Assembly (NCBI GenBank): GCA_023264445.1
Contig: JAHFMN010000002.1
Location: forward strand, 66,365 to 130,364
From: Candidatus Kaiserbacteria bacterium
GTDB lineage: Bacteria > Patescibacteriota > Minisyncoccia > Phycocordibacterales > Phycocordibacteraceae
DNA: 64,000 bases
Reading direction: 5' to 3'
Of this stretch, positions 2,525 through 36,487 are shown in pieces; the stretch's first letter is position 1; each line of letters starts with the position of its first letter. The notes under the pieces were generated by a model. The model saw only the letters and a program-made list of their open reading frames with translations. It did not search any database and had not been told where the DNA came from. A program made the translations under genes and the position numbers.

Positions 2525-2527
2525 ACA

Positions 2528-3628
2528 TTACTGATTCATCGGAGATACAAGATAGAGAAGTGATGGATCATTAACACCTTTAATAATGAGTGGGCGGCCG
2601 ATACCAGCTGCGGTTATTGAGAGACTTTCTGCTGTAGTAAGAGAAAATATTGTTGAGAGATAACGATGATTAAAGGAAAGTTCAATATCACTTCCTGATA
2701 TTTGTGCTGGAAATGTTTCGGATGATTCTCCCACTTCAGTATTTTTTGCAAAGAAAGAAAAGATATTCTTTTTTTGATTAAAGCCAATACGTATTTTTTG
2801 GAATGAATCAGAAAAGATGGTTGTTCGCTTTAATCCTGCTTCAAAATCTTTTCGAAGAATAATTGCTTCTACAACCGATTCCTTTGGTATGATTTGTCGA
2901 TAATCGGGATAAATTGCGTTCGTGAGTCGTGAAACTATCATCCCGGTATTCCCTACGAATGCACATTGATGGTCATCGAACGATAGAATAATATCCTCAT
3001 CAGGTAGTGCTTGAGCTATATCGAGCGCATTTTTTGCAGGAATAAGGAATTTTCCTTGTGTACCTTTATTTGAAAGAGGTATTTTTTTCTCCGTAAGCCG
3101 GAATGAATCAGTTGCAACTGCAGTGAGTAATCCTCCTTCTATAGAGAGATAGAGACTTGAAAGTTCTGGGCGAATAGTTGAAGTTGATGCACAGGAAGAA
3201 ATTGAATTAAATAGGTTCTTTAAAAGAACCCCTGAAAGTACGATTCTATTTTTTGGATTTTCTGGAAATGGTATAGAAGGAAAATCGTCGTAGGGTATGG
3301 TTTTTATTGAACTTTTCCCCATACCACTCTTAAGAGAAATAATATCCCCTATATGTTCAAGAGATATTTTTCCTTCTTGAGTCAGAGAAGTAGCTATTTG
3401 TTGTAATAGAATTGCAGGAATTGCTACGACGCCATGAGAAATAACTTCTCCTTCTAGTTTTAAATCAATACCAGTTTCGAGATTGGTAGCTCTCATTTTA
3501 ATACCTTCATCCCCCGCAACTATAAGGATAGAAGAAAGAACAGGGAGTGTAGTTGTCTTTCGTTCTGCAAAACGAGAGACGGTATGTACTGCTTCAGAGA
3601 ATGTCTTTTTTTCTATTGAAATATTCAT
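2528..3628 (-). CDS. dnaN: DNA polymerase III beta subunit (sliding clamp)
   Basis: MNISIEKKTFSEAV...LPVLSSILIVA clamp-like N-terminus; lies downstream of dnaA; internal ATG at 3628 chosen because DnaA boxes lie in the longer ORF's extension. Confidence 0.88.
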   Translation of the reverse strand: MNISIEKKTFSEAVHTVSRFAERKTTTLPVLSSILIVAGDEGIKMRATNLETGIDLKLEGEVISHGVVAIPAILLQQIATSLTQEGKISLEHIGDIISLKSGMGKSSIKTIPYDDFPSIPFPENPKNRIVLSGVLLKNLFNSISSCASTSTIRPELSSLYLSIEGGLLTAVATDSFRLTEKKIPLSNKGTQGKFLIPAKNALDIAQALPDEDIILSFDDHQCAFVGNTGMIVSRLTNAIYPDYRQIIPKESVVEAIILRKDFEAGLKRTTIFSDSFQKIRIGFNQKKNIFSFFAKNTEVGESSETFPAQISGSDIELSFNHRYLSTIFSLTTAESLSITAAGIGRPLIIKGVNDPSLLYLVSPMNQ

Positions 3629-3739
3629 ATCATTCCTATTAGGAGTGTGGATAAGTGGAGAAAGAAAAAATACGATGTATATATTGATTATTTTTTCCAC
3701 CTATACACGAATATAGTGTGGATAGATAGTAGGAAAAGA
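3629..3739. promoter_or_regulatory. putative oriC segment: DnaA boxes TGTGGATAA (3646-3654, perfect) and TGTGGATAG (3717-3725) flanking an AT-rich stretch (3661-3700)
   Basis: dnaA-dnaN intergenic position; consensus DnaA box; AT-rich candidate unwinding element. Confidence 0.5.
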
Positions 3740-5098
3740 TCATACAAGAAGTGTGCGGATATTTTGAATTTCTTTTGCGAGCTCATTATCAACAACTACT
3801 TCACGCTTTATTTTCTCACATGAGTGGATAACTGTTGTATGATCGCGCCCACCAAGTTTTGTTCCGATAGTTGGATACGAAATACTAAAATCCTCACGAA
3901 GAATATACATAATGACTTGCCGTGGGCGCACCACTTCCCTTCTTCGGGTCTTTTCATAAATACTTTCTTCATCAATTCCATAATATTCAGCAACCTTATC
4001 AACCACATTTTTCACAGATATATTTTTCTGGGGTCGGGTGAATGAACGTAATGATTGTCTCACTTCAGCAATATCAGGGGAAGATCCTTTTACTTGAGCA
4101 TGGCAAATAATACTATTCACCATTCCTTCTAATTCTCGAATAGATCCTGATATAGAAGTAGCGACATATTCAACCACCTCATCCGACAATAAAATACCGT
4201 GTAACGAAGCCTTTTTCCGAACAATAGTCATACGTGATTCAGGATCAGGTTCACCAATATCAATAGTCATTCCGCTTGCTAAACGACCCTTCAAGCGCTC
4301 GGCGATATCAGGGATAGCAGCAGGCGCTCGATCAGAAGAAAAGATAATCTGCTTATTTGTATCGTGGAGGGTATTGAATAAGTGAAATAGTTCCTCCTCC
4401 GTCTTCAATTTTTTAGAAAGAAACTGTACATCATCCATGATAAGAAGATCATATTGACGGTATTTATCTTTAAATCGATTTGCTGTTCCTGCTTGCACAG
4501 AATCGGTGTAATCAATAGTGAATTTTTCAGAGGTAAGATAAAACACTTTACGTCCTTGGTACTGTTTTTTAAATTGATTACCGATAGCTTGAATGAGGTG
4601 TGTTTTACCACGGCCAGTGTCGCCGTAGATGAAGAGAGGATTATAGGTAATACCTGGACGATTCAGTACCGCTTGTGCCGCTGCGTATGCAAGATTATTG
4701 AATGAACCAATAACAAACGTATCAAATGTATAACGAGGATTCAGATTATCGCTTTTATTAATATAAAATTCATCCAACGGAAGTTCCAAAATACCCCGTA
4801 AAGGGTTTTTGTTCTCTTTTTGGGACTTATTACGATGTTCATCCTTAACGATGAGATATTCAATGTTCCGAAATTCATATGAAATATCTCGGATAATTTT
4901 TAAGAGTAGAGAATGAAATTTCTTCAGGTACCAATCTTTAAAGAATTGGCTGGGTACACCGATATATACCACTCCATCCTCCCCTATCTTCACAATAAAA
5001 CTGTTGCGAAACCATGTATTGAAGTTTGCTGGCGATATAGAAAGTTCAATTTGAGTCAGAACGTATTCCCAGAGTTCCCGTGGATTCCCTTTGTCCAT
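3740..5098 (-). CDS. dnaA: chromosomal replication initiator DnaA
   Basis: AAA+ Walker A GDTGRGKTHL, Walker B LLIMDDVQF, C-terminal DnaA-box-binding domain (TLGGRDHTTVIHSCEKI); start at ATG 5098 (MDKGNPRELWEYV). Confidence 0.92.
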   Translation of the reverse strand: MDKGNPRELWEYVLTQIELSISPANFNTWFRNSFIVKIGEDGVVYIGVPSQFFKDWYLKKFHSLLLKIIRDISYEFRNIEYLIVKDEHRNKSQKENKNPLRGILELPLDEFYINKSDNLNPRYTFDTFVIGSFNNLAYAAAQAVLNRPGITYNPLFIYGDTGRGKTHLIQAIGNQFKKQYQGRKVFYLTSEKFTIDYTDSVQAGTANRFKDKYRQYDLLIMDDVQFLSKKLKTEEELFHLFNTLHDTNKQIIFSSDRAPAAIPDIAERLKGRLASGMTIDIGEPDPESRMTIVRKKASLHGILLSDEVVEYVATSISGSIRELEGMVNSIICHAQVKGSSPDIAEVRQSLRSFTRPQKNISVKNVVDKVAEYYGIDEESIYEKTRRREVVRPRQVIMYILREDFSISYPTIGTKLGGRDHTTVIHSCEKIKREVVVDNELAKEIQNIRTLLV

Positions 5099-5198
5099 GA
5101 TGAGATGGAGTATACGCCGTCCCGGAATGAATAGCACGTGTGGTGTTTCGGGGAGAACCTGTTAATATTATGTGTATAACCTAATCTTGCATTCCAGT

Positions 5199-5336
5199 AT
5201 GTCAAAACGGACCTATCAGCCGAAGAAGAAGAAGAGGGCCACAACCCATGGGTTCCTTTCACGCTCGAAAACAAGCGCCGGCCGTGCCATTGTGAGGCGC
5301 CGGCGCCATGCTGGTCGCACGCGGCTTACTCCATAG
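5199..5336 (+). CDS. rpmH: 50S ribosomal protein L34
   Basis: Not in the ORF track (45 aa): [45 protein letters not shown]; canonical rpmH-rnpA-yidC order. Confidence 0.9.
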
Positions 5337-5337
5337 C

Positions 5338-5649
5338 GTGTTTCCGCGCCGTAAGCGGTTTCCTCGTGCACTCTTCCCTACTGCCCTGAAGGGTGGACGT
5401 CGTCTTTCTTCTCCCCACTTCTCCATAATCCTTCCAAGGGAAGGCGCAGGATACGCGGTTGTAGTGTCAAAAAAGGTCGCCCGCCTCTCGGTTACCCGGC
5501 ATCGTATAAAGCGACGGATTCTTGAGGTACTCCGTACACTTCCTCTCCCACAAGCTCTCATTATCTTCCCAAAGTCTTCTGCCGCCGATATCCCCCGTCA
5601 AGAGATATACATAGAACTAGAAACCCTCCTTTCCAATACGCGGTCATAG
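5338..5649 (+). CDS. rnpA: ribonuclease P protein component
   Basis: LSSPHFSII...KKVARLSVTRHRIKRRILEVLR matches the RnpA basic motif; GTG at 5338 just after the rpmH stop is the likely start (the listed ORF overlaps rpmH). Confidence 0.8.
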   Translation: MFPRRKRFPRALFPTALKGGRRLSSPHFSIILPREGAGYAVVVSKKVARLSVTRHRIKRRILEVLRTLPLPQALIIFPKSSAADIPRQEIYIELETLLSNTRS

Positions 5650-5663
5650 CGTACAATACCCCT

Positions 5664-6395
5664 GTGATTTCATCTTTCTTTCACGCGGTGTTCTACGATC
5701 CGATTTATAACGCACTTGTCGCGCTCGTTTCTTTCATCCCTGGATCTGATGTTGGTATCGCCATCATCCTTATCACCATCCTCATCCGACTCGTCCTTCT
5801 CCCCTTCTCTCTTTCAGCGGCACGCACCCAGCGCGCGATGAAAATAATCGAACCGAAGATAAAGGAATTGAAGGAAAAGTATAAAGACGATAAAGAAAAG
5901 GAGGCGCTTGAGACCCTTGCTCTCTATCGTGAAGAGAAGGTAAATCCGTTTGCAAGTATCCTCATGGTTTTTATTCAGATTCCGGTCCTACTTGCTCTGT
6001 ATTTTGTCTTCTATCATGAACCATTTCCCGCCATCAATATTGCGCGGCTATATCCATTCACTCCAGTCCCTGGTATGGCATCGCTTGAATTCCTCGGTCT
6101 TATTTCGGTTGCAGGAAAAAGCCTGGTGCTTGCCTTTCTTGCAGGACTTACACAATTTTTCCAGGCACACGCAGCTCTTTCGGGGACTATGAAACCACCA
6201 GAAGGTACTGGCATGCAGGCCGATTTCCAGAGGATTATGGGACTGCAGCTGAAATACGTCTTCCCATTCCTTATCGGGACTATTTCCTATACGACGTCTG
6301 GCGCCATCGCGCTGTATTTCATCACGACGAACCTCGTCGGCGTACTGCAAGAAATGTATGTGCGCCGAGCACTCTCAAAAGAATCATCAAAATGA
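5664..6395 (+). CDS. yidC: membrane protein insertase YidC/Oxa1 (short form)
   Basis: Multi-TM; follows rnpA; LIRLVLLPFSL...QRAMKIIEPKIKELKEKYKDDKEK hallmark. Confidence 0.85.
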   Translation: MISSFFHAVFYDPIYNALVALVSFIPGSDVGIAIILITILIRLVLLPFSLSAARTQRAMKIIEPKIKELKEKYKDDKEKEALETLALYREEKVNPFASILMVFIQIPVLLALYFVFYHEPFPAINIARLYPFTPVPGMASLEFLGLISVAGKSLVLAFLAGLTQFFQAHAALSGTMKPPEGTGMQADFQRIMGLQLKYVFPFLIGTISYTTSGAIALYFITTNLVGVLQEMYVRRALSKESSK

Positions 6396-7577
6396 GTAAC
6401 TCCAGAGAGAACTATCATTCTTGTTAAGAAACACGAGCGTCGTACCCGAAGGATCGAGCGCGAGTGAGGAAGCATCAAGTACGTCTTTCGTTTCTGCTGT
6501 GAAATCAAGGACGAGCTGTGCATAACGACTTGTGACATCGATCCTCCATATACGGTCGGAGAAATGAACTATTCCCTGATACCAGTCATCGGGATAACGG
6601 GAAGAAGGAGGATTCACAGGTACACCGCAATACAGAGAAGAATCATCATTTGTCCATACACATTTTTCAGCAATAGTTGCGATAGGAAGAGGAATAGATT
6701 CTCCCGTCACTGTGTGTACGAGCCTCATCTGCATGGTGTTTCCGAGGGTGTAGCTTATAAGTGCCCACTTCCCCGACGGGCTCGTAAGGGCAGTAAGGCC
6801 ATAGAGTGGCCCGGCGATTCGGGAGAAATGTCCGGTGGTATCCACAAGAAATGCATCGCCCTGAAGAGATGATGAAGGCTTTGTATATGCAAGATATTGA
6901 TTCTTTCCGGCAAAGGAAATAATGAGAGAGGAAAGGGGCGTACGGAATATTTCGGCCGTATGCGAGCCGTCAGTACGTGAGAGAGAAGCGACTGAACCAT
7001 TTACTCCAGAAGAAAGTGTAAGCACATTTGTTGAGGAAAGAGAGATACCAGAGAGGTTCTGTGACAAAAAGAAGCCGTTTGTACCGGTCGATGGGAGCGC
7101 GTAAGTGTTAATGGTGGAAAAGTCAGCACCTGAAAGATACCGAACAAACGCAAACGACCCATTTGGAAGCCAGAGAGCAGACTGAATACCCGGAAGGGTT
7201 TTATTTGATATGCGAGTAGACCTCTTTGTCGCTGTGCTGTAGGAAAAGATATTGCCACTCTGTCGCTCAATGTACTGGGCGATGACTTCAGACGATGAAC
7301 TTGCACTCCCTCCCTTATTGATAACGATTTCTCCAGGCACAATCGGTCCCTCACTTACTTTCACTAATCGTGACGAAACAGAAGTCGCTGTGCCCGAAGA
7401 AGGAGGAATAATAGTCACTTCCTGCGAAGGAGGAGTCCCCTGCCCTGCCACAGGTAGACCAGTGTCCCCTCCCGGCGCAACGGTGACATTCGCGGAACGC
7501 ATAAAGAAGAAATACGCCGCCACGCCGGCAACTGCGAGGAGGAGTACGATTGCTGCGATGATAAGGGTTCGTCGCAT
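6387..7577 (-). CDS. hypothetical signal-anchored extracytoplasmic protein, possibly beta-propeller-like; last gene on the strand of the T4SS-like operon
   Basis: N-terminal TM MRRTLIIAAIVLLLAVAGVAAYFFF; Ser/Thr-rich repeats; no recognised catalytic motif. Confidence 0.55.
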   Translation of the reverse strand: MRRTLIIAAIVLLLAVAGVAAYFFFMRSANVTVAPGGDTGLPVAGQGTPPSQEVTIIPPSSGTATSVSSRLVKVSEGPIVPGEIVINKGGSASSSSEVIAQYIERQSGNIFSYSTATKRSTRISNKTLPGIQSALWLPNGSFAFVRYLSGADFSTINTYALPSTGTNGFFLSQNLSGISLSSTNVLTLSSGVNGSVASLSRTDGSHTAEIFRTPLSSLIISFAGKNQYLAYTKPSSSLQGDAFLVDTTGHFSRIAGPLYGLTALTSPSGKWALISYTLGNTMQMRLVHTVTGESIPLPIATIAEKCVWTNDDSSLYCGVPVNPPSSRYPDDWYQGIVHFSDRIWRIDVTSRYAQLVLDFTAETKDVLDASSLALDPSGTTLVFLNKNDSSLWSYSF

Positions 7578-7583
7578 ATTTAT

Positions 7584-8528
7584 TTATGGAGAACAAGTCA
7601 GTGACACGCCGTAGCAAATGACACCATATTGACTTGTAGTGGTGTACGTCACCCCCATCGACTCTGAACACCCATTCGTGAGTGATGTCCATGAATAAGT
7701 AGAGAGTGAATGGCTAGCTATAAATGCGGCTCCGGCAGCAGTTATGGTAGCTTTCATCGTACCCCCATCTGCAGTGCACCCTGCGCTAAAGGCATTTTGA
7801 ATTTGTGAATCCCTCGGTACAACCGTACTGTCCCACCCAGGGATAATTCCAAAAAGATGAGTCGCCTTTTGGTACTGAACGGTTATACTTTTTCCACAAT
7901 AGAGAGTGACACTCGCATCCACACAGTTACCGCTAGCATTTTCAGTTTGGCAAGACGCGATGGTCGGGGATAATCCATTGCTGCAGCTATAGCTTGATGC
8001 ATAATTTTGACTTGAACATACTGCTCTCTCGAGATAGGGGCCACTGCTTCCGGTCGTGCATCCAGCTGATGGAGCAGTCACCGAGGTCTGGGACCCATTG
8101 TTTGAGGTGGATCCGGTTGTTAACGTTTGTCCAGGTGCGGTGTCGAGTGGGCGGAGGTTGAGAGAGAGATTCAGGATACTCGGGTTGATGATCGAGAAGA
8201 CGAGAACGGGAGAGAGAACAAGTACAAGGCCGAAGATCGCCTGCACGATGCGTCCTTTTGCATCCGTTAGCTTGCTAACGTTTTCTTTATTAACCGCAAT
8301 CTCAAGCCCACCCCAGATGATTTCTATGACGGCAAGAGCTGCAGCGAGCCCAATGAGGTATTTGTAGAGATTATTGAAGAAGTTTGCGAGCGATTCTGAA
8401 TTGGCGATGGCCGAACTGGGATCAGTAAGTCCTGGAATTGGTGCGAGGGCAACGAATTCCTCCGCTAAGACATGAGGTGCTATCCCGAAGAGAAGGAAGC
8501 TACCTGCGATAAATAGTATTTTTTTCAT
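7584..8528 (-). CDS. pilin-like protein: signal peptide, two hydrophobic helices (VirB2/TrbC-like topology), Cys-rich C-terminal domain
   Basis: MKKILFIAGSFLLFGIAPHVLA signal; helices LYKYLIGLAAALAVIEIIWGGLEIAV and IVQAIFGLVLVLSPVLVFSII; at least 10 Cys in the C-terminal half; alternative starts at 8582 and 8612. Confidence 0.5.
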   Translation of the reverse strand: MKKILFIAGSFLLFGIAPHVLAEEFVALAPIPGLTDPSSAIANSESLANFFNNLYKYLIGLAAALAVIEIIWGGLEIAVNKENVSKLTDAKGRIVQAIFGLVLVLSPVLVFSIINPSILNLSLNLRPLDTAPGQTLTTGSTSNNGSQTSVTAPSAGCTTGSSGPYLERAVCSSQNYASSYSCSNGLSPTIASCQTENASGNCVDASVTLYCGKSITVQYQKATHLFGIIPGWDSTVVPRDSQIQNAFSAGCTADGGTMKATITAAGAAFIASHSLSTYSWTSLTNGCSESMGVTYTTTSQYGVICYGVSLTCSP

Positions 8529-8608
8529 CCCGTTAGAAATAGAACTTACAAGGTAATCTTTCAATGTTCGTTTATTATTCATGCTTTGCTCGTTATTTCT
8601 AACGGGAT
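8527..8608 (-). promoter_or_regulatory. 15-bp perfect inverted repeat (atcccgttagaaata / tatttctaacgggat) forming a large stem-loop in the leader of the pilin-like gene
   Basis: Arms at 8527-8541 and 8594-8608 read directly from the sequence. Confidence 0.45.
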
Positions 8609-9604
8609 TCATAGGCCGAAGAGATTAAATCCTTTTGTCGTGCCGAAGGAGAGTGAGAGATTTGTAGAAGCTCTCATATAGTCGCCAGAGGAAGCGACGA
8701 GTGAAAGAGAGGCACTTCCCTGCCCGTTCCCAGAGGGTCGCAGGGTTATTATGCCTCCCGTCTGCGCGTGTACACCGTTGAGGAACCACTCGAGAGTAGG
8801 TGAACCGCGCGACGTCCCGAAGGAAAACGGGGCGGCAAAAAGTGTTGCCTCGGCACTCTTGATGCTATAGGAGCCGAAAAGTGCATGGTCGAAGCGGACT
8901 CCAAGGAGTGGATCGTTCTCATAGATGCGCACTGAAGGATCGAGAGCGGAGAGTGAGAGAGTAGAACCACCTACCAAGCTTCCATCTTGGCTCATGACCG
9001 AGACCGAGACTTCGCGGGAACGGTATTGGAGTGGAGAGGCGACCATAATCGCCTCTTTACCAATACCAGAAGCGTTTGTGATCTGTGCCTTATCAACTAT
9101 CCATGTGTAGGAAAGTGTATGTGGATCAAGCGCCTTCCCGCTCGCATTTCTCATGTTCGCAATGGCGACAACTCGCACATTCCCCTCAAGCGGTACCGAA
9201 GGTTTTCCCGGATACAGTGGCGGAGCCGAGGAGATCGGCTCCGCCACAAGCGCGACATCTTGGGGTTGAATAGCAATTGATTGAGAGTACTGTGTCCCGC
9301 CAGACGTTATAGAGACCTCTACCTGTGTCACAGCCCCAGCTTTGCCGAGCGTAACGGTCATCGGCTGTATGTTGCCTTTATAGATATTCTTTCCGGCAAC
9401 CATGACAGACATCGACGCATTCGTTAGGTCAATAGTGGAAGAAAGGAATGAAAGTGTAGCTTGACCATATGGCATCGGATACTGCGGAGATATTGAAACA
9501 GAAAATGAGGAAGCACTACTGCCAAAGTCTCCGAGAGATTGTGCTGAGATTGAAAGAGGCAGTAAAAGCGCAATAGCAAGAGCGACAGGTGGTCCGAAGC
9601 GCAT
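8609..9604 (-). CDS. hypothetical secreted protein (signal peptide), T4SS-like operon member
   Basis: MRFGPPVALAIALLLPLSISAQS signal; 4-nt overlap with the downstream gene. Confidence 0.55.
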   Translation of the reverse strand: MRFGPPVALAIALLLPLSISAQSLGDFGSSASSFSVSISPQYPMPYGQATLSFLSSTIDLTNASMSVMVAGKNIYKGNIQPMTVTLGKAGAVTQVEVSITSGGTQYSQSIAIQPQDVALVAEPISSAPPLYPGKPSVPLEGNVRVVAIANMRNASGKALDPHTLSYTWIVDKAQITNASGIGKEAIMVASPLQYRSREVSVSVMSQDGSLVGGSTLSLSALDPSVRIYENDPLLGVRFDHALFGSYSIKSAEATLFAAPFSFGTSRGSPTLEWFLNGVHAQTGGIITLRPSGNGQGSASLSLVASSGDYMRASTNLSLSFGTTKGFNLFGL

Positions 9605-9633
9605 GCTTCTAGTATATAGCCTGCGCAGCGCCC

Positions 9634-10317
9634 TTATGCCGCTTTCCGTGCTCCCTCGGGGATTTCCTCGGCAGCGTATGCAGCATCATTTGATGCTTCT
9701 TGCTCTGTCTGTGCTATTTGACTAGCTTGATACTGCATTAGTTGTGCCTCCATCATGGCTTGCTGCCGCTGCTTTTGCTGTAGTGCGCCCTGCTCTTGTT
9801 GATATTTCTTCATCTTCGCCTTTTCTGATTTGATTTGGATGTGGTACATCCGCCACGTGGAAAGGGTGAATGAAGGGATGGCTCCAATAAGAGGGACTTC
9901 AGCGATGGCGAGACTGGCGACGAACCAGAGCGCGTGCCCAGCCTCTTCTTTAAATATGCGCGCGTTCATGAGCATGAGCATGAGACCAATGACGAGCCAG
10001 CCCAAAAACCCGGTAGCCATGGCCATGATGACACCGAATGTCTCAATTGCGCCTACACCGAAGAATCCCAATCCTCCAGCAATAGTGGTGCACCCTGCCG
10101 CCACAGCTTTCCCTGCTATGCCCGCCATGCTCGTCCCGGCCGCACTAGTAGCGGTAGCCGTACAAGCAACCGCAGCAACTACGGGTCCGAAGAACCAGAA
10201 GAATTCAAAAAAAATACGCAGGAGATCGAAAACGACGGCTACCGTAAGGACTGGTGATGCCTTCGGCCAGGTCATTACCGGCGGAGCCGGAGGAGGTTCA
10301 TTTCTTTTCAGTGGCAT
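9634..10317 (-). CDS. polytopic Gly/Ala-rich membrane protein with a Gln-rich C-terminal tail; possible T4SS inner-membrane component
   Basis: About 4 TM segments; start overlaps the VirB4-like stop by 20 nt. Confidence 0.55.
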   Translation of the reverse strand: MPLKRNEPPPAPPVMTWPKASPVLTVAVVFDLLRIFFEFFWFFGPVVAAVACTATATSAAGTSMAGIAGKAVAAGCTTIAGGLGFFGVGAIETFGVIMAMATGFLGWLVIGLMLMLMNARIFKEEAGHALWFVASLAIAEVPLIGAIPSFTLSTWRMYHIQIKSEKAKMKKYQQEQGALQQKQRQQAMMEAQLMQYQASQIAQTEQEASNDAAYAAEEIPEGARKAA

Positions 10318-12115
10318 AACGCTCCTTCTCTGCCTTTATCGCAAGGAGCTGGGAAGGATCGGACGTGATGATCTGGTCTTCCGTGTAGCTTGCGACGACC
10401 TTGATAGCAACGTGCTTCAGTCCCGCGAAGAAGAGTCCTTCTCCTACCCCCGCTTCGAGTAGTAGGTATTTTTCCTCATCAGTGAGGTTGAAGGTCTGCT
10501 GTAGCACATCGATCGTCGTTGGGGACTGCTTCAACAAGAGCTGTAATGAAGAGTTCGTGAGAATCGGCCGCCCATAGGGGCTCTTGAGGAAATCTTCCAC
10601 ATCCTGTGTGATGGTACAGACCCCGAGAAAATACTTGCGTCCACGCTTCGCGACAGAGTAGAGGAAGGATGCCGTATCTTCGCTCTTCATCATCCACCAT
10701 GCCTCATCGATAATGAGCAGACGCTTCTTCAGTTCATGGCGGATTTCGTTCCAGATATAGTGAGTGATGATGTACATTGCGACTGACTTCAATTCATCCT
10801 CCATATCGCGCACGGAGAAGACTATGAATTGCTGCTTGATGTCGATGTTGGTCGGTTGATTCATAAATCCCGCCCAGGTGCCGTGAGTGTATTTTGAAAG
10901 GCGTATGACGAGAGATTCGCTCCCTTCCATGCCAGAGAGCACCTGCTCGAAATCGGAGAGGAGCGGTGGTTCCGCACCGGTGAAGTCGACATCTCCAGTG
11001 ATGTCTTTGAGGGCATAGGTTTCGCTCACCGCGCGATCGATGATGGCGTCCTCCTCAGGCGTGAGGCCGCCGAGCATGATGCGGAAGAGCCCGACGAGCG
11101 AGATAATGTTGGAACGTAGGATATCTTTCGGGTCCTCATCGCTTTTTACCGGTGGCAGGTCAAACGGATTGATATGGTGTTCGGAGGAAAGTGAAATATG
11201 GAAAGAGCGCCCACCTGTCGCCTCTGCAAGCTGTTCGTATTCGCGCTCAGGGTCGATGACAATGATATCCGTACCAAACATGAGAGAACGAAGCACTTCA
11301 AGCTTTGTCGCATAGCTCTTTCCGGAGCCGGATTTGGCGAAGACGACGGAATTGTAGTTCTCGAGGGAGAATCGGTCGAAGAGGATGAGCGAGGAGTTAT
11401 GGCGATTGATGCCATAGAGGATGCCGCGGTCGCTCGTGAGATCAAAGGAGACGAATGGAAAGATTGATGAGAGCGGCGAAGAATTCAATTTTGAATTCAC
11501 GAGAAGCTCATCGGTGCCAAGCGGTAGGCAGGAGCGGAATCCCTGTTCCTGCTGAAACAGCGCCGGCTTCGTGTAGACGAGCTTTGCATCAAGGATGCCG
11601 CGTATCTCGCCTTCAGTCTTATCAATTTCCTCCCGGGAATCACCGTAGAGGGCAAGGTAGATGCCGACGTCAAAAAGCTTCTCTTGTGCCTGCTGCAGAC
11701 TATCGCGCAGGCTCTCGAGGTCCTGGTAGGCAGTGTCGAGGAGTGGATCGCGCACGAGTCCTTTTGCTTCACGCTCGCTGATCTGACTCTGTACTTCGGC
11801 CACCTTTTTCTGGAAGCTGCGGAGCGCTTGTTCGGTTTCAACTGGATGGATGAATATCGAAGCATCAAGTACGGTGTCCAGATTGATAATTGGAGAGAAC
11901 CAGCCATCGGAGAGGAATCGCGGGTAGGAAATAGTGTAGAAAGACCGGACGAACTTTTCTCCGAGCTCTAGCTCACGGGAACCGATCTTCAGCGCGGTCG
12001 GGGCGATAGTGTCCACAAGATCCAGCGCCCCTTGCTTGTAAATATCCTTCGGGAGCACGGGAACCACCATCGGGGATTGCTCGTTTTTGCGCTTGAGAAA
12101 ATCAAGTAAAGCCAT
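10298..12115 (-). CDS. VirB4/TrbE/CagE-family type IV secretion ATPase
   Basis: Walker A FAKSGSGKSY, Walker B LLIIDEAWWMM, C-terminal GVCTITQDVEDF motif typical of VirB4; start taken at MALLDFLKRK (12115). Confidence 0.85.
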   Translation of the reverse strand: MALLDFLKRKNEQSPMVVPVLPKDIYKQGALDLVDTIAPTALKIGSRELELGEKFVRSFYTISYPRFLSDGWFSPIINLDTVLDASIFIHPVETEQALRSFQKKVAEVQSQISEREAKGLVRDPLLDTAYQDLESLRDSLQQAQEKLFDVGIYLALYGDSREEIDKTEGEIRGILDAKLVYTKPALFQQEQGFRSCLPLGTDELLVNSKLNSSPLSSIFPFVSFDLTSDRGILYGINRHNSSLILFDRFSLENYNSVVFAKSGSGKSYATKLEVLRSLMFGTDIIVIDPEREYEQLAEATGGRSFHISLSSEHHINPFDLPPVKSDEDPKDILRSNIISLVGLFRIMLGGLTPEEDAIIDRAVSETYALKDITGDVDFTGAEPPLLSDFEQVLSGMEGSESLVIRLSKYTHGTWAGFMNQPTNIDIKQQFIVFSVRDMEDELKSVAMYIITHYIWNEIRHELKKRLLIIDEAWWMMKSEDTASFLYSVAKRGRKYFLGVCTITQDVEDFLKSPYGRPILTNSSLQLLLKQSPTTIDVLQQTFNLTDEEKYLLLEAGVGEGLFFAGLKHVAIKVVASYTEDQIITSDPSQLLAIKAEKERYATEKK

Positions 12116-12116
12116 A

Positions 12117-12752
12117 TCAGTTGTCGAGGCGGATAGGATTCTCCAATTCGCCCGGGTTAAACGAGCGATACATGAGCTCAATGACTTCTTCGGTTCCAAG
12201 CGGGACGGCGCGCACACCGGTGCCGGAAAGACTGCTTGCGATAAGCATTAGCCGCTGCTCGAGTTGCGCACGATCTTCTTCAAACGAACTTTCTGCAGCG
12301 GCGCTCTGCGCAGAAGCATTCCCCTTCCGCAAGAAGCCGACGGCGCGCGCGGCGGAGACACGGGGAGCATACGGCACGACGATGTAGAACGATTTCGTCA
12401 TAATGTTCGCGTGGTCGGTGAAGGAGCGGACGAATTCAATATATTCGCGCAACTGAATCCGCATAAGCTCTGTCTTTTGCCCTGGGGCTTTTTCCTCTAG
12501 AAGGGCGAGATACGGGCGCAAATCCATCTTGCGTGAGTTCACGACGATCTGGACGGAGAAATCGATTGTATTGAGGAAATTCTGGAAGCCAAGCGTGATG
12601 GCGCGCTGTTCGTCGGCCGATTTCAATCCGAAGTTGATTGAGGAACAGATGAGTACGCCGCGATAGCCCCCATCCTTCAACACGATGACGCCGTTCCGGA
12701 TCTCCTTTACCGGGACAAATTGCTGCGTTGCTCCTGAAGGTGCGGTTGCCAT
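12117..12752 (-). CDS. hypothetical soluble protein between the PrgI-like and VirB4-like genes
   Basis: Start at MATAPSG (12752); no recognisable motif; operon position only. Confidence 0.5.
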   Translation of the reverse strand: MATAPSGATQQFVPVKEIRNGVIVLKDGGYRGVLICSSINFGLKSADEQRAITLGFQNFLNTIDFSVQIVVNSRKMDLRPYLALLEEKAPGQKTELMRIQLREYIEFVRSFTDHANIMTKSFYIVVPYAPRVSAARAVGFLRKGNASAQSAAAESSFEEDRAQLEQRLMLIASSLSGTGVRAVPLGTEEVIELMYRSFNPGELENPIRLDN

Positions 12753-12753
12753 A

Positions 12754-13191
12754 TTAGGATGTGGGCTTTTCACCCCCTCCAGATACATCAAGCGACCATG
12801 CGAGCTCGGAAAGCTTGCCGCGGGTGAGTTTCGGCGTTCTACGCGCACTCTGCGCAGCAGCATCTGCTTGTGCGGCCGCCTGTACTGCAGCACTCTCCCC
12901 TGCCGCCTTCGACTCTTCGCGTTTCCAGAGGAAGAACTTTGCACCGATGTAGTAATTGAAGCCCGCCTCCAACACCTCTATGAAAGGTTTCCCGTTTATC
13001 TTGTAAAACGAAAGGGCCGCTGCGAGTGCTGCGACTGGCACCGAAAGCATGATGGCATACAGTATTGGCAGATAGACGAAGAGGATGACGCAGAGTCCAA
13101 TGCCGCCGGCGACATAAATAAATTGCTTCAGCGTCAAAGGGCCGATAATCTTGTCTTCAACCTCGATAAATTGTGGCACCTGGTACTCCAT
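12754..13191 (-). CDS. PrgI-family (VirB3-like) small membrane protein
   Basis: MEYQVPQFIEVEDKIIGPLTLKQFIYVAGG followed by two TM helices, immediately upstream of VirB4; arrangement typical of Gram-positive-type T4SS. Confidence 0.55.
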   Translation of the reverse strand: MEYQVPQFIEVEDKIIGPLTLKQFIYVAGGIGLCVILFVYLPILYAIMLSVPVAALAAALSFYKINGKPFIEVLEAGFNYYIGAKFFLWKREESKAAGESAAVQAAAQADAAAQSARRTPKLTRGKLSELAWSLDVSGGGEKPTS

Positions 13192-13483
13192 CTCCCACAG
13201 TATAACAGCAGCGAGCGCTCAAGGGCGTGGCCAGTGTTGTTATACTGTATTAGTGTTCCCTGTTCTTTTCGGGAGGTTCTCACATGTATATGTATATCGT
13301 TCATGAAGTGAAAAAAGAGGAGCATGTGAGATGTTCAAAATGCCGTGACACCATCGATCTTTCTACCGAAAGCTACCACAGAGAGGTTGATAGCTATGGT
13401 GTCTCGCTATTTTGGCATCACGAGTGCTGGCATGGACCGTTGCTGCTGCTCATCGATTGAAGAGGCCTCCAGCCTCTTCTCTT

Positions 13484-14122
13484 TTATAACGGAGAATTCC
13501 CTACGAGAAGGTCGAATACCCAGACGACCAGTCTGAAGAACGGCCCAGCAAACAAGTACGAGAAGGCAAACAAGAAAAGGATAAGTGAAAGCATTCCCGC
13601 CCCGCGGATGCTCTGCTCGATACGCGCAAGACCGCTCGCAAGGTGCCAGGGGAGTATCGCGCGAAGCGTGGTGAAGCCATCCAAAGGTGGAAATGGTATC
13701 AGGTTGAAAAGGCCGAGGAAAAGATTGATAAAGGCGATGGTCGTAGCAAATGAGATTGCGGTCGCATCGAGCCCCACCGCTCCACCGTAGCGAACGATTA
13801 TCCCGAAAATAACGGCGAGCAGGAGATTTGTCGCGCTTCCGGCGATGGCGACTAGTGCCTCACCCCAGCGCTGATTGCGCAGATTGTAGGGGTTATAGGG
13901 CACCGGCTTCGCCCACCCGAAAAGGATGGGAGAATGAGTGAAGATGAGGAGCGCTGGGAGAATGATGGACCCCATCAAATCGATGTGTGAAAGAGGGTTT
14001 AATGTGAGACGCCCGGCGAGCCGTGCAGTCGGGTCTCCGAGCGAGTTGGCGGCATAGCCATGCGCTACTTCATGCGCAATGACAGAAAGGATGAGGACAA
14101 TGAGCGAGAGGATGATTTCCAT
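13484..14122 (-). CDS. site-2 protease family (M50) zinc metalloprotease
   Basis: HEVAHGYAA zinc motif within a TM helix, LNPLSHIDLMGSI, multi-TM; internal ATG start at 14122. Confidence 0.75.
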   Translation of the reverse strand: MEIILSLIVLILSVIAHEVAHGYAANSLGDPTARLAGRLTLNPLSHIDLMGSIILPALLIFTHSPILFGWAKPVPYNPYNLRNQRWGEALVAIAGSATNLLLAVIFGIIVRYGGAVGLDATAISFATTIAFINLFLGLFNLIPFPPLDGFTTLRAILPWHLASGLARIEQSIRGAGMLSLILFLFAFSYLFAGPFFRLVVWVFDLLVGNSPL

Positions 14123-14161
14123 GGTTGCCGGTTTCGTATCGTATGCTACCATGCGGCAGTT

Positions 14162-14404
14162 ATGGCACGCGCCTGCGACATCACCGGCAAGAGCACGCAA
14201 ATTGGCGGGCGGTACTCCAACCGCACCCGCGCGACGCAATTCAACCCGACCGGCAAGGTACGCCGCAAGGCCAATCTCCAGAAGCGCCGCATCTACGTAG
14301 CAGAGCTTGGGAAAACAGTCATCGTGGACGTCTCGGTCAAGGGTCTCAAGACCATCAAGAAGCACGGCGCCTACGCCACCCTCAAGAAAGCGGGAGTTCT
14401 CTAG
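14162..14404 (+). CDS. rpmB: 50S ribosomal protein L28
   Basis: MARACDITGKSTQIGGRYSNRTRATQFNPTGKVRRKANLQKRRIYV. Confidence 0.85.
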   Translation: MARACDITGKSTQIGGRYSNRTRATQFNPTGKVRRKANLQKRRIYVAELGKTVIVDVSVKGLKTIKKHGAYATLKKAGVL

Positions 14405-14431
14405 CAGACAGTTCGACTTCTCCAGAAATAT

Positions 14432-14464
14432 GAGCTACATTCAAACGGTAGCTCTTTTTCTTTT
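14432..14464 (+). terminator. rho-independent terminator after rpmB (gagctac-N9-gtagctc followed by a T-run)
   Basis: Read directly. Confidence 0.5.
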
Positions 14465-14770
14465 GCATGTAGGGGTGAAGAATGGAAAATAATCATTTTA
14501 CTCAACTAGCTTCCTTGGTCGCCAAGGTCTACGCGGGGAAAGACTGGCATGCGTTGTCTCTACGAGAGAGAGAAATCGTGGGCATACTTGAGCTCACGGG
14601 GTATCTCGTGGTCAACGATCCTCCCAACGGTTTCGTCGGCCCAGCTGTTCCCCGACCGCATGATCGCCAACAGCAGTTGGACCTGGTCCACCACCAGTAA
14701 CGCGGGCGCCTCTCTAGAAGAGGCGCCCAACTCATTTCATAGCAACCAGGCGCTATGCTACATTTCATCT

Positions 14771-15376
14771 ATGACGTACACACCAAGAGTATTTAATTTA
14801 CCAGTGCTTGAGGGGATTTCAGAAAAGCAGATTAAAGTGCATCTCGCGCTCTACGAGGGCTATGTGAAGCATGTGAATCTCATCATGGGCATGTCCCAGA
14901 TGTACGGAAAGACCGATGATGAAGGCGGTAAGTATTCTCTCGCTGAATTCCGCCGCCGATTCGGTTTTGAGTTCGATGGGATGCGCATGCATGAATACTA
15001 TTTTGAGCAGTTTGAGGGCGAGAAAGGAGGAAGCCCCGATTCAGTGCTTGCGAAAGCGGCGGCCGAGAAATACGGAAGCGGCGAAGAATTTCTTGCACAC
15101 GTGAGGCAAGTGGCAGCGACTCGCGGCATCGGCTGGGTAGTGGTATATGCCGATCCCGTCGGAAAGACTATCCATACGGTATTCGTCGGCGACCACGAGT
15201 TTGGCCAGCTTTCCGGCCTCCCTGTCCTCCTCGCACTCGATCTCTGGGAGCATGCGTACATGGTGGACTATGTGCCAGCCGACAAGAAAAATTATATTGA
15301 TGCGTTCTTCGCCAATCTCAATTGGAGCGTCGTTGAGAAGCGTTTTGACGAGGCGATGAAAATAAGCGCCGCATAA
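14771..15376 (+). CDS. sodA: Fe/Mn superoxide dismutase
   Basis: C-terminal DLWEHAYMVDY and ANLNWSVVEKRF signatures; start at MTYTPRVF (14771) gives about 200 aa; the listed ORF extension is probably non-coding. Confidence 0.78.
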   Translation: MTYTPRVFNLPVLEGISEKQIKVHLALYEGYVKHVNLIMGMSQMYGKTDDEGGKYSLAEFRRRFGFEFDGMRMHEYYFEQFEGEKGGSPDSVLAKAAAEKYGSGEEFLAHVRQVAATRGIGWVVVYADPVGKTIHTVFVGDHEFGQLSGLPVLLALDLWEHAYMVDYVPADKKNYIDAFFANLNWSVVEKRFDEAMKISAA

Positions 15377-16788
15377 GCGGCGAGGACGAGCAGGAACGGA
15401 AAACGCTCGATAGTAAAGGCCGCAAACGGGAGCGCGGAGCTTTTCTCCGCGATAAAGATGAAGTATTTCATGAGTACGTACACGGGATAGCCCGCGATTT
15501 TTGCAATGAGCAGCACGAAAGGCCCGATGGTCATGCCGACGACGCCCGCGAGCGCGGCGAAAGCCATTGCAAATGGCACAAACGGATTCACAAGCAGATT
15601 CGCAGGCAGAGCGACGAGCGAGAAGAGACCGATGTCGTAAAGAAGAAGCGGTAATACCGAGATCTGCGCCGCGAGCGTCGTCGCGACAATGTTCCTCCAG
15701 AAGGAGTGCAAACGCATCAAGCGTGCTTCGATGAGAGGCGAAAGCCAGATAATTCCCGCAGTCGCGGCAACCGAGAGGCCGAATCCGGGGTCGAAGACGA
15801 GAAAGAGAGGATTCCAGATGAGCATCAAGAGGACCGCCACAAGAAGCGCGCGGCTCGCGGCGTACGAGCGACCTGTCGCGCGTGCATAGAGTGCGATGAT
15901 GGCCATGATGGCGGCGCGTATGGCCGTGGCAGAGATACCTGCAATGCCGACAAAGAGGAGGAGTGCCGCGCCGCCGGCGAAAAACTGCAGGCGGCGCGGG
16001 AGCTGTAGGAGTACGAAAAAAGCCATCACCCACTCGGCCACGACCATGATGTTGTATCCGGAGAGGACGATGATTTGCACGAGCCCCGAGCGCGTGAAGG
16101 CATCCTTCAGTGCAGTCCCTAGCCCCTCCTTCCCGCCGATGACGATGCCGCCCGCAAGCGCCGAAGCGGGCTCCGGCAAGGCAAGAGCAAGTCCATCGAG
16201 GAATGAATGCTTAATGCGCGCGAGCGCGGCAGGAATCGAGTACCAAGGCGCGGGCTCTACCGTATATATGGACCCGAATTGGATAAGGAAGCGGATATTC
16301 CGCGCCTCTAGGTATTTATCGTAGCGGAAGGTACGTCCGCCATCCGTTTCAAACGCCTGCGGCAGAGAAAGCGTCCCGTATACGCGCACGCGGTCGCCGA
16401 CGCGCACATCGGCAGAAAGCGGCATGACCGCAAGTGCGCCGACCTTCTCACTACCCTTCTCCACAACGAGCGCGATGCGCTGATTCTTCTCGCGCACATC
16501 TGGATCGCTCACGACCACTCCGTCATACTGCACACGATGCCGCAGGTCGCTCGCAAATGCTTGAGGCAACGGTGTGTCAGCAATCGTCGCACGCACCGTT
16601 CCGAACACGACGCAGATACAAAACACCGCACCAAGTGAGTACACAAGGCGCGGCTTCAAAAACGCCGCGCCGCCAAACAGCGCCGCGAGTAGCATTACAA
16701 ACAAAACTGCCTCCCATCCAAAATTAAAAACCGACTGCACCCCCACCCCACCCACAAACCCTGCAACAATGGCGATAAGAGCCTCCAT
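15292..16788 (-). CDS. comEC: ComEC/Rec2-family DNA internalisation channel (no metallo-beta-lactamase domain)
   Basis: N-terminal DUF4131-like region plus competence domain, GLVQIIVLSGYNIMVV, multiple TM. Confidence 0.78.
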   Translation of the reverse strand: MEALIAIVAGFVGGVGVQSVFNFGWEAVLFVMLLAALFGGAAFLKPRLVYSLGAVFCICVVFGTVRATIADTPLPQAFASDLRHRVQYDGVVVSDPDVREKNQRIALVVEKGSEKVGALAVMPLSADVRVGDRVRVYGTLSLPQAFETDGGRTFRYDKYLEARNIRFLIQFGSIYTVEPAPWYSIPAALARIKHSFLDGLALALPEPASALAGGIVIGGKEGLGTALKDAFTRSGLVQIIVLSGYNIMVVAEWVMAFFVLLQLPRRLQFFAGGAALLLFVGIAGISATAIRAAIMAIIALYARATGRSYAASRALLVAVLLMLIWNPLFLVFDPGFGLSVAATAGIIWLSPLIEARLMRLHSFWRNIVATTLAAQISVLPLLLYDIGLFSLVALPANLLVNPFVPFAMAFAALAGVVGMTIGPFVLLIAKIAGYPVYVLMKYFIFIAEKSSALPFAAFTIERFPFLLVLAAYAALIFIASSKRFSTTLQLRLAKNASI

Positions 16789-16919: not shown

Positions 16920-17291
16920 ATGGAATATAACTTTTGGGTAAACCAACAAGGGCGGTCCCCCGTCCTTGAAGACCTAAAAGTGGTGTCCAGTGCCGATGCT
17001 AACTCAGGAAAGGCCTACTGGCTTCAGTTAAGTAAGGTCAGGAAGTATTCCTATCCACAAATGGCGGGGAAACTCATTAAAAAGCTTAAAGGCGAAAACC
17101 CATATAAGATTTTCGAGCTGAGATTTTCCCTGCCCCGGAAGATAGCGAGGACCTTCTGTGTTATTGGACGGGATTCAACATTGTGGCTGCTGCACCTAGT
17201 TATTAAGAAAAAAGATGGAACGAAGCATTCCGACATAAGGGTTGCCGAAGAAAGAGCAGGAATCCTTGAGCGCGCAATTCATTATTTATAA
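16920..17291 (+). CDS. RelE/HigB-type (phage Gp49-like) toxin
   Basis: KIFELRFSLPRKIARTFCVIGRDSTLWLLHLVIKKKDGTKHSDIRVAEERA matches the Gp49/HigB family; toxin-first order. Confidence 0.6.
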   Translation: MEYNFWVNQQGRSPVLEDLKVVSSADANSGKAYWLQLSKVRKYSYPQMAGKLIKKLKGENPYKIFELRFSLPRKIARTFCVIGRDSTLWLLHLVIKKKDGTKHSDIRVAEERAGILERAIHYL

Positions 17292-17302
17292 ACGAAGATT
17301 AT

Positions 17303-17755
17303 ATGAAGATCCAACACGCAAAAGAAATATTGCTTGGAGATGACAAAATCCGGAAATCATTTGAGAAAAATGATTTGGACAGCATCAAAATAAATGTTGG
17401 TCTGCAAATTCTTGAATTGAGGCTAATTAAAAATCTTACCCAGAAACAATTGGCTAAGAAGATTGGTACTAAACAGCCCAGCATCGCGCGCGTCGAAAGG
17501 GGAGCTACTGCTCCGAGCTTAACGTTCCTCTATAAGATTGCATCTGCAGTTGGTACGGACTTGATTCCACCAAAATTTGCAATCGTTGAAGAAAACGAAC
17601 TCCGAGATCAACTTAATTCGCTTGTGGTCGAGTCAGTCTTCCGTATTGCTGAGCACAAAACGGAGCCAACGGATAACTACAGAGTCTCCCAGGAAAGTAG
17701 AAATATTATTGGAAGCTCCACCAGTCCATTAGTCAATGCAAATAAATTCATATGA
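17303..17755 (+). CDS. XRE-family helix-turn-helix antitoxin (HigA-like) with a C-terminal extension
   Basis: HTH LTQKQLAKKIGTKQPSIARVERG. Confidence 0.65.
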   Translation: MKIQHAKEILLGDDKIRKSFEKNDLDSIKINVGLQILELRLIKNLTQKQLAKKIGTKQPSIARVERGATAPSLTFLYKIASAVGTDLIPPKFAIVEENELRDQLNSLVVESVFRIAEHKTEPTDNYRVSQESRNIIGSSTSPLVNANKFI

Positions 17756-26728: not shown

Positions 26729-26732
26729 ATGT

Positions 26733-28481: not shown

Positions 28482-28673
28482 ATACCTTTGAAGTATAACG
28501 CGCCCATACTCAACTCTAGCGTGCTGTGCATATATACTGTTGCTATTGACGCAGTTTCGCTCTTTAACAATTCGGAAGATGTAAGACATCCTAGGTAACG
28601 TTCGACGTTACAGCAGGATTAGGATGTCGCGTACGGGGGCGAATCGTAAACGATTCGCCCCCAACTCTTTCTA

Positions 28674-28701
28674 TTGACGCGCGCAGTGCTTCTGGTATAC
28701 T
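28674..28701 (+). promoter_or_regulatory. sigma70-like promoter TTGACG-N16-TATACT upstream of nusA
   Basis: Read directly. Confidence 0.45.
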
Positions 28702-36469: not shown

Positions 36470-36487
36470 CTTTAGTCGGGTTTTTTG

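Follow-up and report, generated by a model that had tools for sequence, protein, structure and literature searches.

What does a type IV secretion system (T4SS) do on the chromosome of an ultrasmall bacterium when neither a relaxase nor a coupling protein accompanies it? The question is raised by a stretch of a Candidatus Kaiserbacteria genome (contig JAHFMN010000002.1; hereafter the window, i.e., the whole 64 kb analyzed, and all searches for relaxases, type IV coupling proteins (T4CPs) and paralogues refer to these 64,000 nt). A preliminary description, made from the sequence, had recognized seven genes of T4SS type at 6387-13191 and had suggested that their composition might be undescribed. 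The DNA of the window belongs to the core chromosome of a Patescibacteria (Candidate Phyla Radiation, CPR) bacterium of the Paceibacteria (Kaiserbacteria-like). The seven genes belong to an eleven-gene system that encodes h1, h2, a VirB6-like protein, h4, PrgI/VirB3, TrsD, VirB4, g4, a three-Ig protein, a pilin and a propeller protein. Very probably, it is a vertically inherited chromosomal T4SS of the Patescibacteria clade, derived from MPF-FATA and no longer mobile.

Patescibacteria account for much of bacterial diversity and live at the expense of other microbes, and most of the ultrasmall members carry a chromosomal, relaxase-less T4SS near dnaA. This origin-proximal system ranks with the strongest candidates for an organ mediating host dependence. 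The locus analyzed here is not a new kind of system but a typical instance of this important, host-dependence-related biology. What it adds is incremental: an eleven-gene parts list for Paceibacteria, two folds, a single pilin with a hypervariable tail and a split of the cluster specific to one lineage. For comparison, VirB4 was used as query against one genome per species. At least 593 relatives were found, and the best 80 loci, with GC contents of 0.34-0.58, form the comparison set.

Motor genes and conservation of the cluster

The minus strand carries all seven open reading frames (ORFs) of the block at 6387-13191. If the likeliest start codons are taken, the intergenic spacings are 1, 1, -20, 29, 80 and 6 nt, and choosing 8612 rather than 8528 as the pilin start turns the 80 nt gap into a 4 nt overlap. 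The genes thus form a tight, operon-like block. They had been described as co-directional and mostly overlapping; their number and direction hold, whereas the overlap reduces to tight packing with a single overlap of 20 nt. Because the same order recurs in other Paceibacteria loci (at least 59 genomes), the seven genes are not chance ORFs.

The upstream end of the block encodes the motor. PrgI/VirB3-like, a small membrane protein of 145 aa (12754-13191), scores 41.3 bits against Pfam PF12666 (cut-off 27) and has a single long hydrophobic stretch at residues ~31-49. Adjacent and co-directional is the gene for a protein of 211 aa without a Walker A motif (12117-12752). The preliminary description had listed it as an unknown soluble protein, an entry that has to be replaced: it is TrsD-like, covering positions 1-168 of the NCBIfam model conju_CD1110 (E 5e-6), with further matches to VirB4_plasma (3e-7) and TrsD (TrsD/TraD model, 0.009) and a precomputed Pfam assignment to PF26593 (TraC-like). 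Next comes a VirB4-family ATPase of 605 aa, counted from the ATG at 12115 (10298-12115), which is without the usual N-terminal ~180 residues and aligns to positions 179-733 of the 752 in the same conju_CD1110 profile (377 bits, cut-off 325). Since one profile is shared out between the two ORFs in this way, the TrsD-like protein is, judged by profile coverage, a VirB4 N-terminal domain made as a separate polypeptide. The motor is therefore a VirB4 in two pieces, N-domain and ATPase, with a VirB3-like membrane partner.

This arrangement is a property of the group. The prgI gene lies upstream of trsD-virB4 in 73 of the 80 related loci, and in all but one of these 73 trsD is a separate ORF, in most cases ending 1-117 nt before the virB4 start. 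A frameshift as the cause of the split is ruled out by the separate ORFs in 72 of 73 loci.

The ATPase carries the motifs that had been reported for it, Walker A (AKSGSGKS, residue 260), Walker B (LLIIDEAW, 466) and ITQD (502), and also scores against Pfam P-loop_TraG (91 bits), TraC-F (187 bits) and VirB4_CagE (123 bits). A grouping with FtsK/HerA, which the preliminary description had named as one outcome that would overturn its reading, was rejected: HerA/DUF87 gives only a weak, partial match, and the conju_CD1110 cut-off is passed. Models of archaeal CedB (34 bits, cut-off 700) and CedD score far under their cut-offs. By its profile matches, the VirB4 is assigned to the CD1110/MPF-FATA type. 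The best 80 relatives are 71-93% identical to it, and wherever a record title gives a group, this is one of the Patescibacteria (Paceibacterota, Kaiserbacteria, Parcubacteria and similar). The nearest plasmid proteins, of the CD1110 family from Bacillota and Actinomycetota, are 29-35% identical. With identity serving as a proxy for a tree, this strongly suggests that the VirB4 lies inside a monophyletic Patescibacteria clade. PrgI, VirB4 and the VirB2-like pilin (below) all pass curated cut-offs in profile hidden Markov model (HMM) searches, and the description of the set as Gram-positive in type, here MPF-FATA-derived, is upheld.

Lacking are the functions that would make this a conjugative system. 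None of the scanned ORFs of the window has a relaxase domain, and no T4CP (VirD4/TcpA) domain occurs in its ORFs, as the preliminary description had also reported. All Walker A ORFs of at least 250 aa are accounted for (DnaA, VirB4, PilB, MgsA, ComM-like, UvrD, EF-G and EF-Tu). No flanking repeat/integrase pair was detected at the cluster, and profile searches of the window gave no matches to VirB7, VirB9 or VirB10.

Across loci of GC 0.34-0.58 the cluster keeps to one site, between ksgA and yidC/dnaA. Its own GC content resembles the surroundings, with T4SS genes at 0.49-0.59 bracketing the typical window value of ~0.53. Across 70 more distant loci (L010-L080), VirB4 is 71-86% identical to the window copy (median 74%), compared with medians of 54% for DnaA, 43% for YidC and 35% for DnaN; the loci were chosen by VirB4 similarity, which biases the absolute figures, although the contrast within genomes stands. 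The extracellular T4SS proteins are the least conserved (~29-30% identity). Given the fixed position, the similar GC content and a VirB4 more conserved than DnaA, the cluster is not on a mobile element. These data show strong purifying selection on it and its fixation in the core genome. An origin from an integrative conjugative element (ICE) or plasmid is ruled out by the conserved synteny.

A second locus and the ancestral gene order

The boundary drawn around the seven genes was too narrow, as four further genes of the same ancestral cluster, including the one for the VirB6-like protein, had been missed. In the window the system is split into two loci, at 50636-56490 and 6387-13191. The four co-directional plus-strand ORFs at 50636-56490 have no Pfam family of their own (apart from one weak TSP3_bac match in h1) and represent the upstream part of the T4SS cluster, 37 kb from prgI.

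The first, h1 (50636-51703; 355 aa), encodes a signal-anchored bitopic protein with a bacterial TSP3 (Ca-binding) repeat. The TSP3_bac match is weak (E 0.003), and neither another Pfam family nor a PDB match in the profile search was found. In 43 loci it comes directly after ksgA and precedes h2 and the VirB6-like gene. Two h1 paralogues occur in one Paceibacteria subclade (L019-L023, L029 and L034). The second, h2 (51700-53484; 594 aa), encodes an exported or membrane protein with a helical C-terminus and a conserved core with WIN.GF, TPG and ADEIDEI motifs; Pfam and PDB profile searches gave no match. In 49 loci it separates h1 from the VirB6-like gene. The fourth, h4 (55561-56490; 309 aa), has a conserved N-terminal domain of ~110 aa, a proline-rich tail and a C-terminal DPYREP motif, with no transmembrane (TM) segment and no family match in profile scans, and is flanked by the VirB6-like gene and prgI in 56 loci. 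Detection of these three proteins improved from 28, 25 and 20 loci by tblastn (h1, h2 and h4, respectively) to 43, 49 and 56 by iterative HMM searches.

The third gene (53487-55547) encodes a VirB6/TrbL-like polytopic membrane protein of 686 aa with a signal peptide, about six further TM segments and a charged C-terminal tail. Among 45 orthologues, ten match Pfam TrbL (PF04610; best E 1.1e-5) and three match TrbL_4 (6.7e-6), and further orthologues carry precomputed matches to TrbL_3 (PF19590). In 51 of the 80 loci a homologue shares the strand of virB4 and precedes prgI, separated from it by h4 alone where h4 was detected. Orthology and this position upstream of prgI make it likely that the protein is a VirB6-like component of the T4SS.

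A candidate cell-wall hydrolase and VirB1 analogue, with LysM and Peptidase_M23 domains (Pfam), is encoded at 45567-46331 on the minus strand. Its gene is upstream of uvrD-ksgA-h1 here and in six other loci (L039, L043, L073, L074, L084 and L085), and its association with the T4SS is weak. M23/LysM proteins have been counted among VirB1-like hits, and VirB1 homologues are associated with virB4 in Paceibacteria (PMC12102498).

In most other Paceibacteria loci the order upstream is uvrD-ksgA-h1-h2-VirB6-like-h4-prgI-trsD-virB4. The order downstream is equally conserved, with g4, three-Ig, pilin and propeller genes followed by yidC-rnpA-rpmH and dnaA-dnaN, except that the propeller gene precedes the pilin gene in one subclade (again L019-L023, L029 and L034). 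Conserved order on both sides of virB4 implies an ancestral unit of eleven genes between ksgA and yidC. The backbone order in Ca. Southlakia is the same, so the contiguous state is ancestral.

The first four genes instead lie beside rpsL in the window and the relatives closest to it (L001-L009, L018 and L085), where genes for an M50 peptidase, superoxide dismutase (SOD) and ComEC lie upstream of prgI. Turning ~13.2-56.5 kb around recovers the ancestral gene order and every strand relation, also that of the LysM-M23 gene opposite uvrD; one breakpoint would separate h4 from prgI, the other rpsL from the M50 peptidase gene. By the agreement of order and strand, the split is consistent with a single inversion of ~43 kb.

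Downstream genes of the seven-gene block

Downstream of virB4 is g4 (9634-10317), which encodes, in agreement with the preliminary description, a polytopic, Gly-rich membrane protein; it is small (227 aa), with four TM-like segments and no assigned family. Members of the g4 family are small and have three or four TM segments; the core is 110-280 aa long, ExxPxxxxLP is the shared motif, and the genes directly follow virB4 in 34 loci. The Gly/Ala-rich insert is specific to the lineage of the window. In the subclade with two h1 paralogues (L019-L023, L029 and L034), the ORF survey picked up no g4 gene directly after virB4. We considered whether g4 could be the VirB6 homologue. This was ruled out, as its 32-member family and profile gave no TrbL, Pfam or PDB signal; the conserved core of only ~110-130 aa also counts against it.

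The next gene (8609-9604) encodes a secreted protein of 331 aa, with a signal peptide followed by three Ig/FnIII-like beta-sandwich domains. The AlphaFold2 model consists of three all-beta domains (pLDDT 70, pTM 0.45). Structure models were built from alignments of database homologues ~65% identical, and the poor inter-domain confidence of this model is attributed to that alignment. Top Foldseek matches are phage Hoc (3shs, E 2e-7), CD22 and the adhesin SiiE, and Hoc is also found by a profile search of the PDB (E 4e-5). The secretion that had been proposed for this protein is thus joined by a fold, and the gene is kept at the same position in 55 of the loci spanning virB4 to yidC.

We identified one VirB2-like pilin (7584-8528, with a possible start at 8612), the gene that had been noted for its VirB2/TrbC-like topology, and found no second pilin gene in the window. 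The protein of 314 aa comprises a signal peptide, two hydrophobic helices and a C-terminal domain of 180 aa that contains every one of its ten cysteines. It scores 33.5 bits against Pfam T4SS_pilin (PF18895; cut-off 26.6) and falls just under the cut-off for TrbC (27.6, cut-off 27.9); VirB2 is barely seen in a profile search of the PDB (E 2.4). The pilin domain is conserved in 53 loci, while the C-terminal extension is unalignable and total lengths range from 130 to 615 aa.

The last gene (6387-7577) encodes a membrane-anchored beta-propeller protein of 396 aa. Its AlphaFold2 model (pLDDT 79.8, pTM 0.75) has a membrane helix at residues 2-24, a disordered, low-confidence linker at 24-67 and an all-beta region at 70-396, for which Foldseek returns oligogalacturonate lyase, TolB and WD40 propellers (E 2e-10 and weaker). 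TolB is also found by profile search against the PDB (E 0.0015), and the suggestion of a signal-anchored, propeller-like protein is confirmed in the model. The protein was rejected as a VirB8 analogue, since the model shows a TM helix, a linker and a propeller and no NTF2-like domain. The gene is the last before yidC in 59 loci. With these assignments, the earlier statement that most of the seven have no assignable family was too strong: four are assigned by HMM and two more by fold.

At their 3' ends the propeller gene and the convergent yidC share 9 nt (6387-6395), leaving no intergenic room for terminators. A promoter and terminator consensus scan of 5600-14600 gave sites no more numerous than in shuffled sequence; the scan is uninformative, so the operon boundaries are taken from spacing alone. 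No paralogues of the cluster families were found elsewhere in the window, and Rfam and tRNA scans gave no match within the T4SS locus.

Relationship to described systems

The system is the known T4SS of the Patescibacteria clade, described in 2023-2025 (PMC10633639, PMC12102498). In the survey of Quinonero-Coronel et al. 2025 (Microb Genom 11:001409; PMC12102498), VirB4 was found in 2,417 of 3,035 Patescibacteria genomes and formed a monophyletic clade nested in MPF-FATA, with a class-congruent tree indicating mostly vertical inheritance. TrsD was the most frequent companion component, and PrgI/VirB3, VirB6 and VirB2-like pilins occurred near virB4. Relaxases were found in just 103 of the 3,035 genomes, and T4CP homologues were mostly far from virB4. 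In Paceibacteria and Microgenomatia the cluster is near dnaA, dnaN, rnpA, rpmH and ksgA (PMC12102498). The ancestry, components and chromosomal site of the Paceibacteria system in that work are those of the window, and nothing essential differs. Since composition, lack of a relaxase and a dnaA-side site had all been described (PMC12102498, PMC10633639) and match point by point, the suggestion that the composition might be new fails. To that catalogue the window adds that eleven genes are conserved, six of them without an HMM family; that two of these six fold as a three-Ig protein and a propeller; that there is one pilin gene with a hypervariable C-terminal domain instead of a pilin array; and that the cluster is in two parts in this lineage.

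The best studied relative is the cluster SEML1_0005-0019 of Ca. Southlakia epibionticum ML1, which is essential for epibiotic growth by Tn-seq (Wang et al. 2023, Cell 186:4803, PMC10633639). The authors noted unusual pilins and that relaxase and coupling protein were missing. Both clusters share an order of VirB6-like protein, then PrgI, TrsD-like protein and VirB4, then an exported Ig/FnIII-like protein, as well as VirB2-like pilins of PF18895. Both occupy low gene numbers close to the genome start, and in neither is a relaxase or coupling protein linked to the system. In Southlakia there are six tandem pilins, large proteins of 998-1113 aa, a lysozyme/amidase and an NTF2-like (VirB8-like) protein, whereas the window has a single pilin with a C-terminal domain, a propeller, the four-TM g4 and h1, h2 and h4; neither a lysozyme nor an NTF2-like protein was found here. 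In a 2025 FEMS review these systems are listed as pilus-bearing monoderm T4SSs and as the first T4SS that its carrier needs for growth (PMC12857230).

More distant relatives are the monoderm conjugative MPF-FATA systems (Clostridioides CTn2 of CD1110 type, pCF10 Prg/Pcf and pGO1/pIP501 Trs/Tra). As in the window, they have a CD1110-family VirB4, PrgI just upstream and no outer-membrane core, with a polytopic membrane gene upstream of PrgI and, in pGO1/pIP501, the TrsD-then-VirB4 pair. The conjugative operons lie on mobile elements and encode MobC/relaxase, a VirD4-like CD1115 and an SLT hydrolase, with no VirB2-like pilin. On the C. perfringens plasmid pSXP-169_2, for example, the operon encodes MobC, relaxase, VirD4-like protein, PrgI and SLT hydrolase, with MobC, relaxase and VirD4 no more than 7 kb from virB4. 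The system of the window, by contrast, is on the core chromosome without MobC/relaxase, coupling protein or SLT hydrolase, has a pilin, and its VirB4 is 29-35% identical to theirs.

Predicted function and alternatives

We predict that PrgI, TrsD and VirB4, and the VirB6-like protein would form a motor and platform at the cytoplasmic membrane. The platform would pull Sec-exported pilin from the membrane and polymerize it into a VirB2-type pilus or conduit. In the Agrobacterium VirB system, T-pilus biogenesis requires VirB4 and does not require VirD4. The three-Ig protein, the propeller, the variable Cys-rich C-terminus of the pilin, h1 and h2 would build or decorate an envelope-spanning, host-contacting end, and the filament may carry the pilin C-terminus on its outside. 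Fusions to the C-terminus of F-pilin are displayed in this way, which serves as a lead only. A non-conjugative, host-contact role, as the preliminary description had thought plausible, is the current view in the literature. We consider it probable, with moderate confidence, that the core job of the system is assembly of a pilus or conduit at the host interface.

The substrate is a separate matter. Tentatively, the conduit may import host macromolecules (RNA, DNA or nucleotides) rather than export effectors. Import is favored because of the lack of a linked coupling protein, the host-dependent metabolism and a preprint on uptake of host RNA, in which tubular structures or connections and host-RNA uptake are reported for one cultivated member of the Microgenomatia (bioRxiv 10.64898/2026.06.21.733656). 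In a detailed version of this reading, to be taken with similar caution, a VirB2-type tube driven by VirB4/TrsD, with the fast-evolving pilin C-terminal domain, the three-Ig protein and the propeller as its tip or sheath, would pierce the envelope of a specific host and draw in RNA, DNA or nucleotides, the variable extracellular module setting host range. If this is true, Paceibacteria would have in the cluster their central feeding organ and not a secretion system of the usual sort, serving a cell unable to make its own RNA, DNA or nucleotides. The motor is more conserved than DnaA and the extracellular module (three-Ig protein, propeller and variable Cys-rich pilin tail) diverges rapidly; these extracellular parts are the natural targets for tests of host recognition and transport direction.

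Several points weigh against the reading of the cluster as an immobile, host-contacting T4SS with the components named above. Pilus formation, substrate and transport direction are things that we infer. VirD4-like genes occur elsewhere in many Patescibacteria genomes (PMC12102498), so a distant coupling protein may lie beyond the 64 kb. The VirB6 assignment rests on weak matches in 13 of 45 orthologues, and the window copy itself is below threshold, with no Pfam match. Sequence and profile searches gave no assignable fold or family for g4, h1, h2 and h4, and the cluster itself yielded no recognizable VirB8-like or VirB1-like component. Essentiality is established in only one Saccharibacterium, Ca. 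Southlakia, and not in Paceibacteria. The choice of loci by VirB4 similarity, described above, belongs here too.

Instead of importing, the system could be an effector translocator that injects proteins into a host bacterium or archaeon, with no import role. The Southlakia system "may instead export proteins" (Wang et al., PMC10633639), T4SSs that kill or manipulate bacterial targets exist, and fast evolution of extracellular components is as expected for host contact. However, there is no linked coupling protein here, and the distant T4CP homologue of Southlakia is non-essential (PMC12102498). The known T4CP-independent export (Ptl, Brucella) uses a periplasm, which a monoderm cell would lack, and related loci have no candidate effector genes conserved beside the cluster. 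We regard this alternative as rather unlikely. A purely adhesive pilus, or some other role, is to be considered unlikely to a similar or slightly greater degree.

Less probable still is a DNA-uptake (competence) T4SS that passes DNA to ComEC, as does ComB of Helicobacter. The H. pylori ComB and archaeal Ced systems are VirB4-based and relaxase-free like that of the window, ComB also being free of a coupling protein, and both import. The ComEC gene (15292-16788, minus strand) is three genes upstream of prgI in the lineage of the window, and the T4SS of ABY1-class genomes co-localizes with comF, recG and radA (PMC12102498). Yet co-operation with ComEC is a feature of ComB, whereas no functional link of the T4SS to ComEC is conserved outside this lineage: the adjacency is absent from the other 70 loci and is attributed to the lineage-specific rearrangement. 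ComB also has a diderm core, ComB7/9/10, and core proteins of this type (VirB7/9/10) have no matches in the window. Moreover, the window already encodes type IV pilus machinery (PilB, PilC and a pilin), and natural competence in Saccharibacteria is credited to type IV pili (PMC12857230). In Southlakia, deletion of comEC ends transformation but not growth, while the T4SS is essential (PMC12102498, PMC12857230).

An ordinary conjugative element, either an ICE or a decayed remnant, with its relaxase, coupling protein and oriT outside the window, is very improbable. The VirB4, PrgI and TrsD families do stem from conjugative MPF-FATA systems, a tyrosine recombinase is encoded at 40474-41484 and our inspection was confined to 64 kb. 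Opposed to this are the same core site (ksgA to yidC/dnaA) in dozens of species-level genomes over the full GC range, the surroundings-like GC of a cluster with no relaxase, T4CP or repeat/integrase pair in the window, the conservation of VirB4 beyond that of DnaA, and a published tree that is mostly vertical, with few genomes encoding relaxases (PMC12102498).

That the TrsD/VirB4 split marks a frameshifted pseudogene or assembly error, and hence an inactive system, can practically be dismissed: although the ORFs jointly span one VirB4 profile and overlap by ~100 nt in a mechanical listing, the conserved ATG at 12115 places the genes 1 nt apart, the two-ORF arrangement is seen in nearly all loci and in independent assemblies of the same sequence, and TrsD is the T4SS component most often reported in Patescibacteria and is essential in Southlakia (PMC12102498).

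Genomic context

On the origin side, the T4SS locus has dnaN (2528-3700) and dnaA (3740-5137) as neighbors, and rpmH, rnpA and yidC (5172-6395) adjoin the seven-gene block; ksgA (49028-49777) adjoins the second locus. The gene order begins with PBP1, dnaN, dnaA, rpmH, rnpA and yidC, then the seven-gene block. Beyond it lie the genes for the M50 peptidase, SOD, ComEC, RecJ, PGK and TIM, followed by type IV pilus genes (pilin, PilC and PilB), RNase Y and tRNAs. Then come a Xer-like recombinase, a ComM-like protein, the LysM-M23 peptidase, UvrD and KsgA, and after KsgA the h1, h2, VirB6-like and h4 ORFs, rpsL, rpsG, EF-G and EF-Tu.

The type IV pilus/competence set (23232-29851, minus strand) includes PilC, PilB and two ORFs (445 and 371 aa) without a family, and its pilin-like gene at 24566-25126 carries an N-methylation motif. 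Beside ComEC, at 16920-17755 on the plus strand, Gp49/HigB-like and helix-turn-helix (HTH) genes (Pfam labels from the gene table of an identical contig, L081) probably form a toxin-antitoxin module.

The dnaN/dnaA region (2001-5000) has a GC content of 0.36-0.39, versus ~0.52-0.55 elsewhere in the window. The dip is weaker in close relatives (for example, in L007, 0.38 for dnaN versus 0.50 for the locus) and is not seen in distant ones. The region at 35219-41484 contains four tRNA genes (Gly, Pro, Gly and Arg) and genes for a CCA-adding enzyme, a protein of the exo/endonuclease/phosphatase family and the Xer-like tyrosine recombinase (40474-41484), with a mild GC dip (0.48-0.50) across 38-42 kb. 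It may be a small island, or the recombinase may simply be xerC/D.

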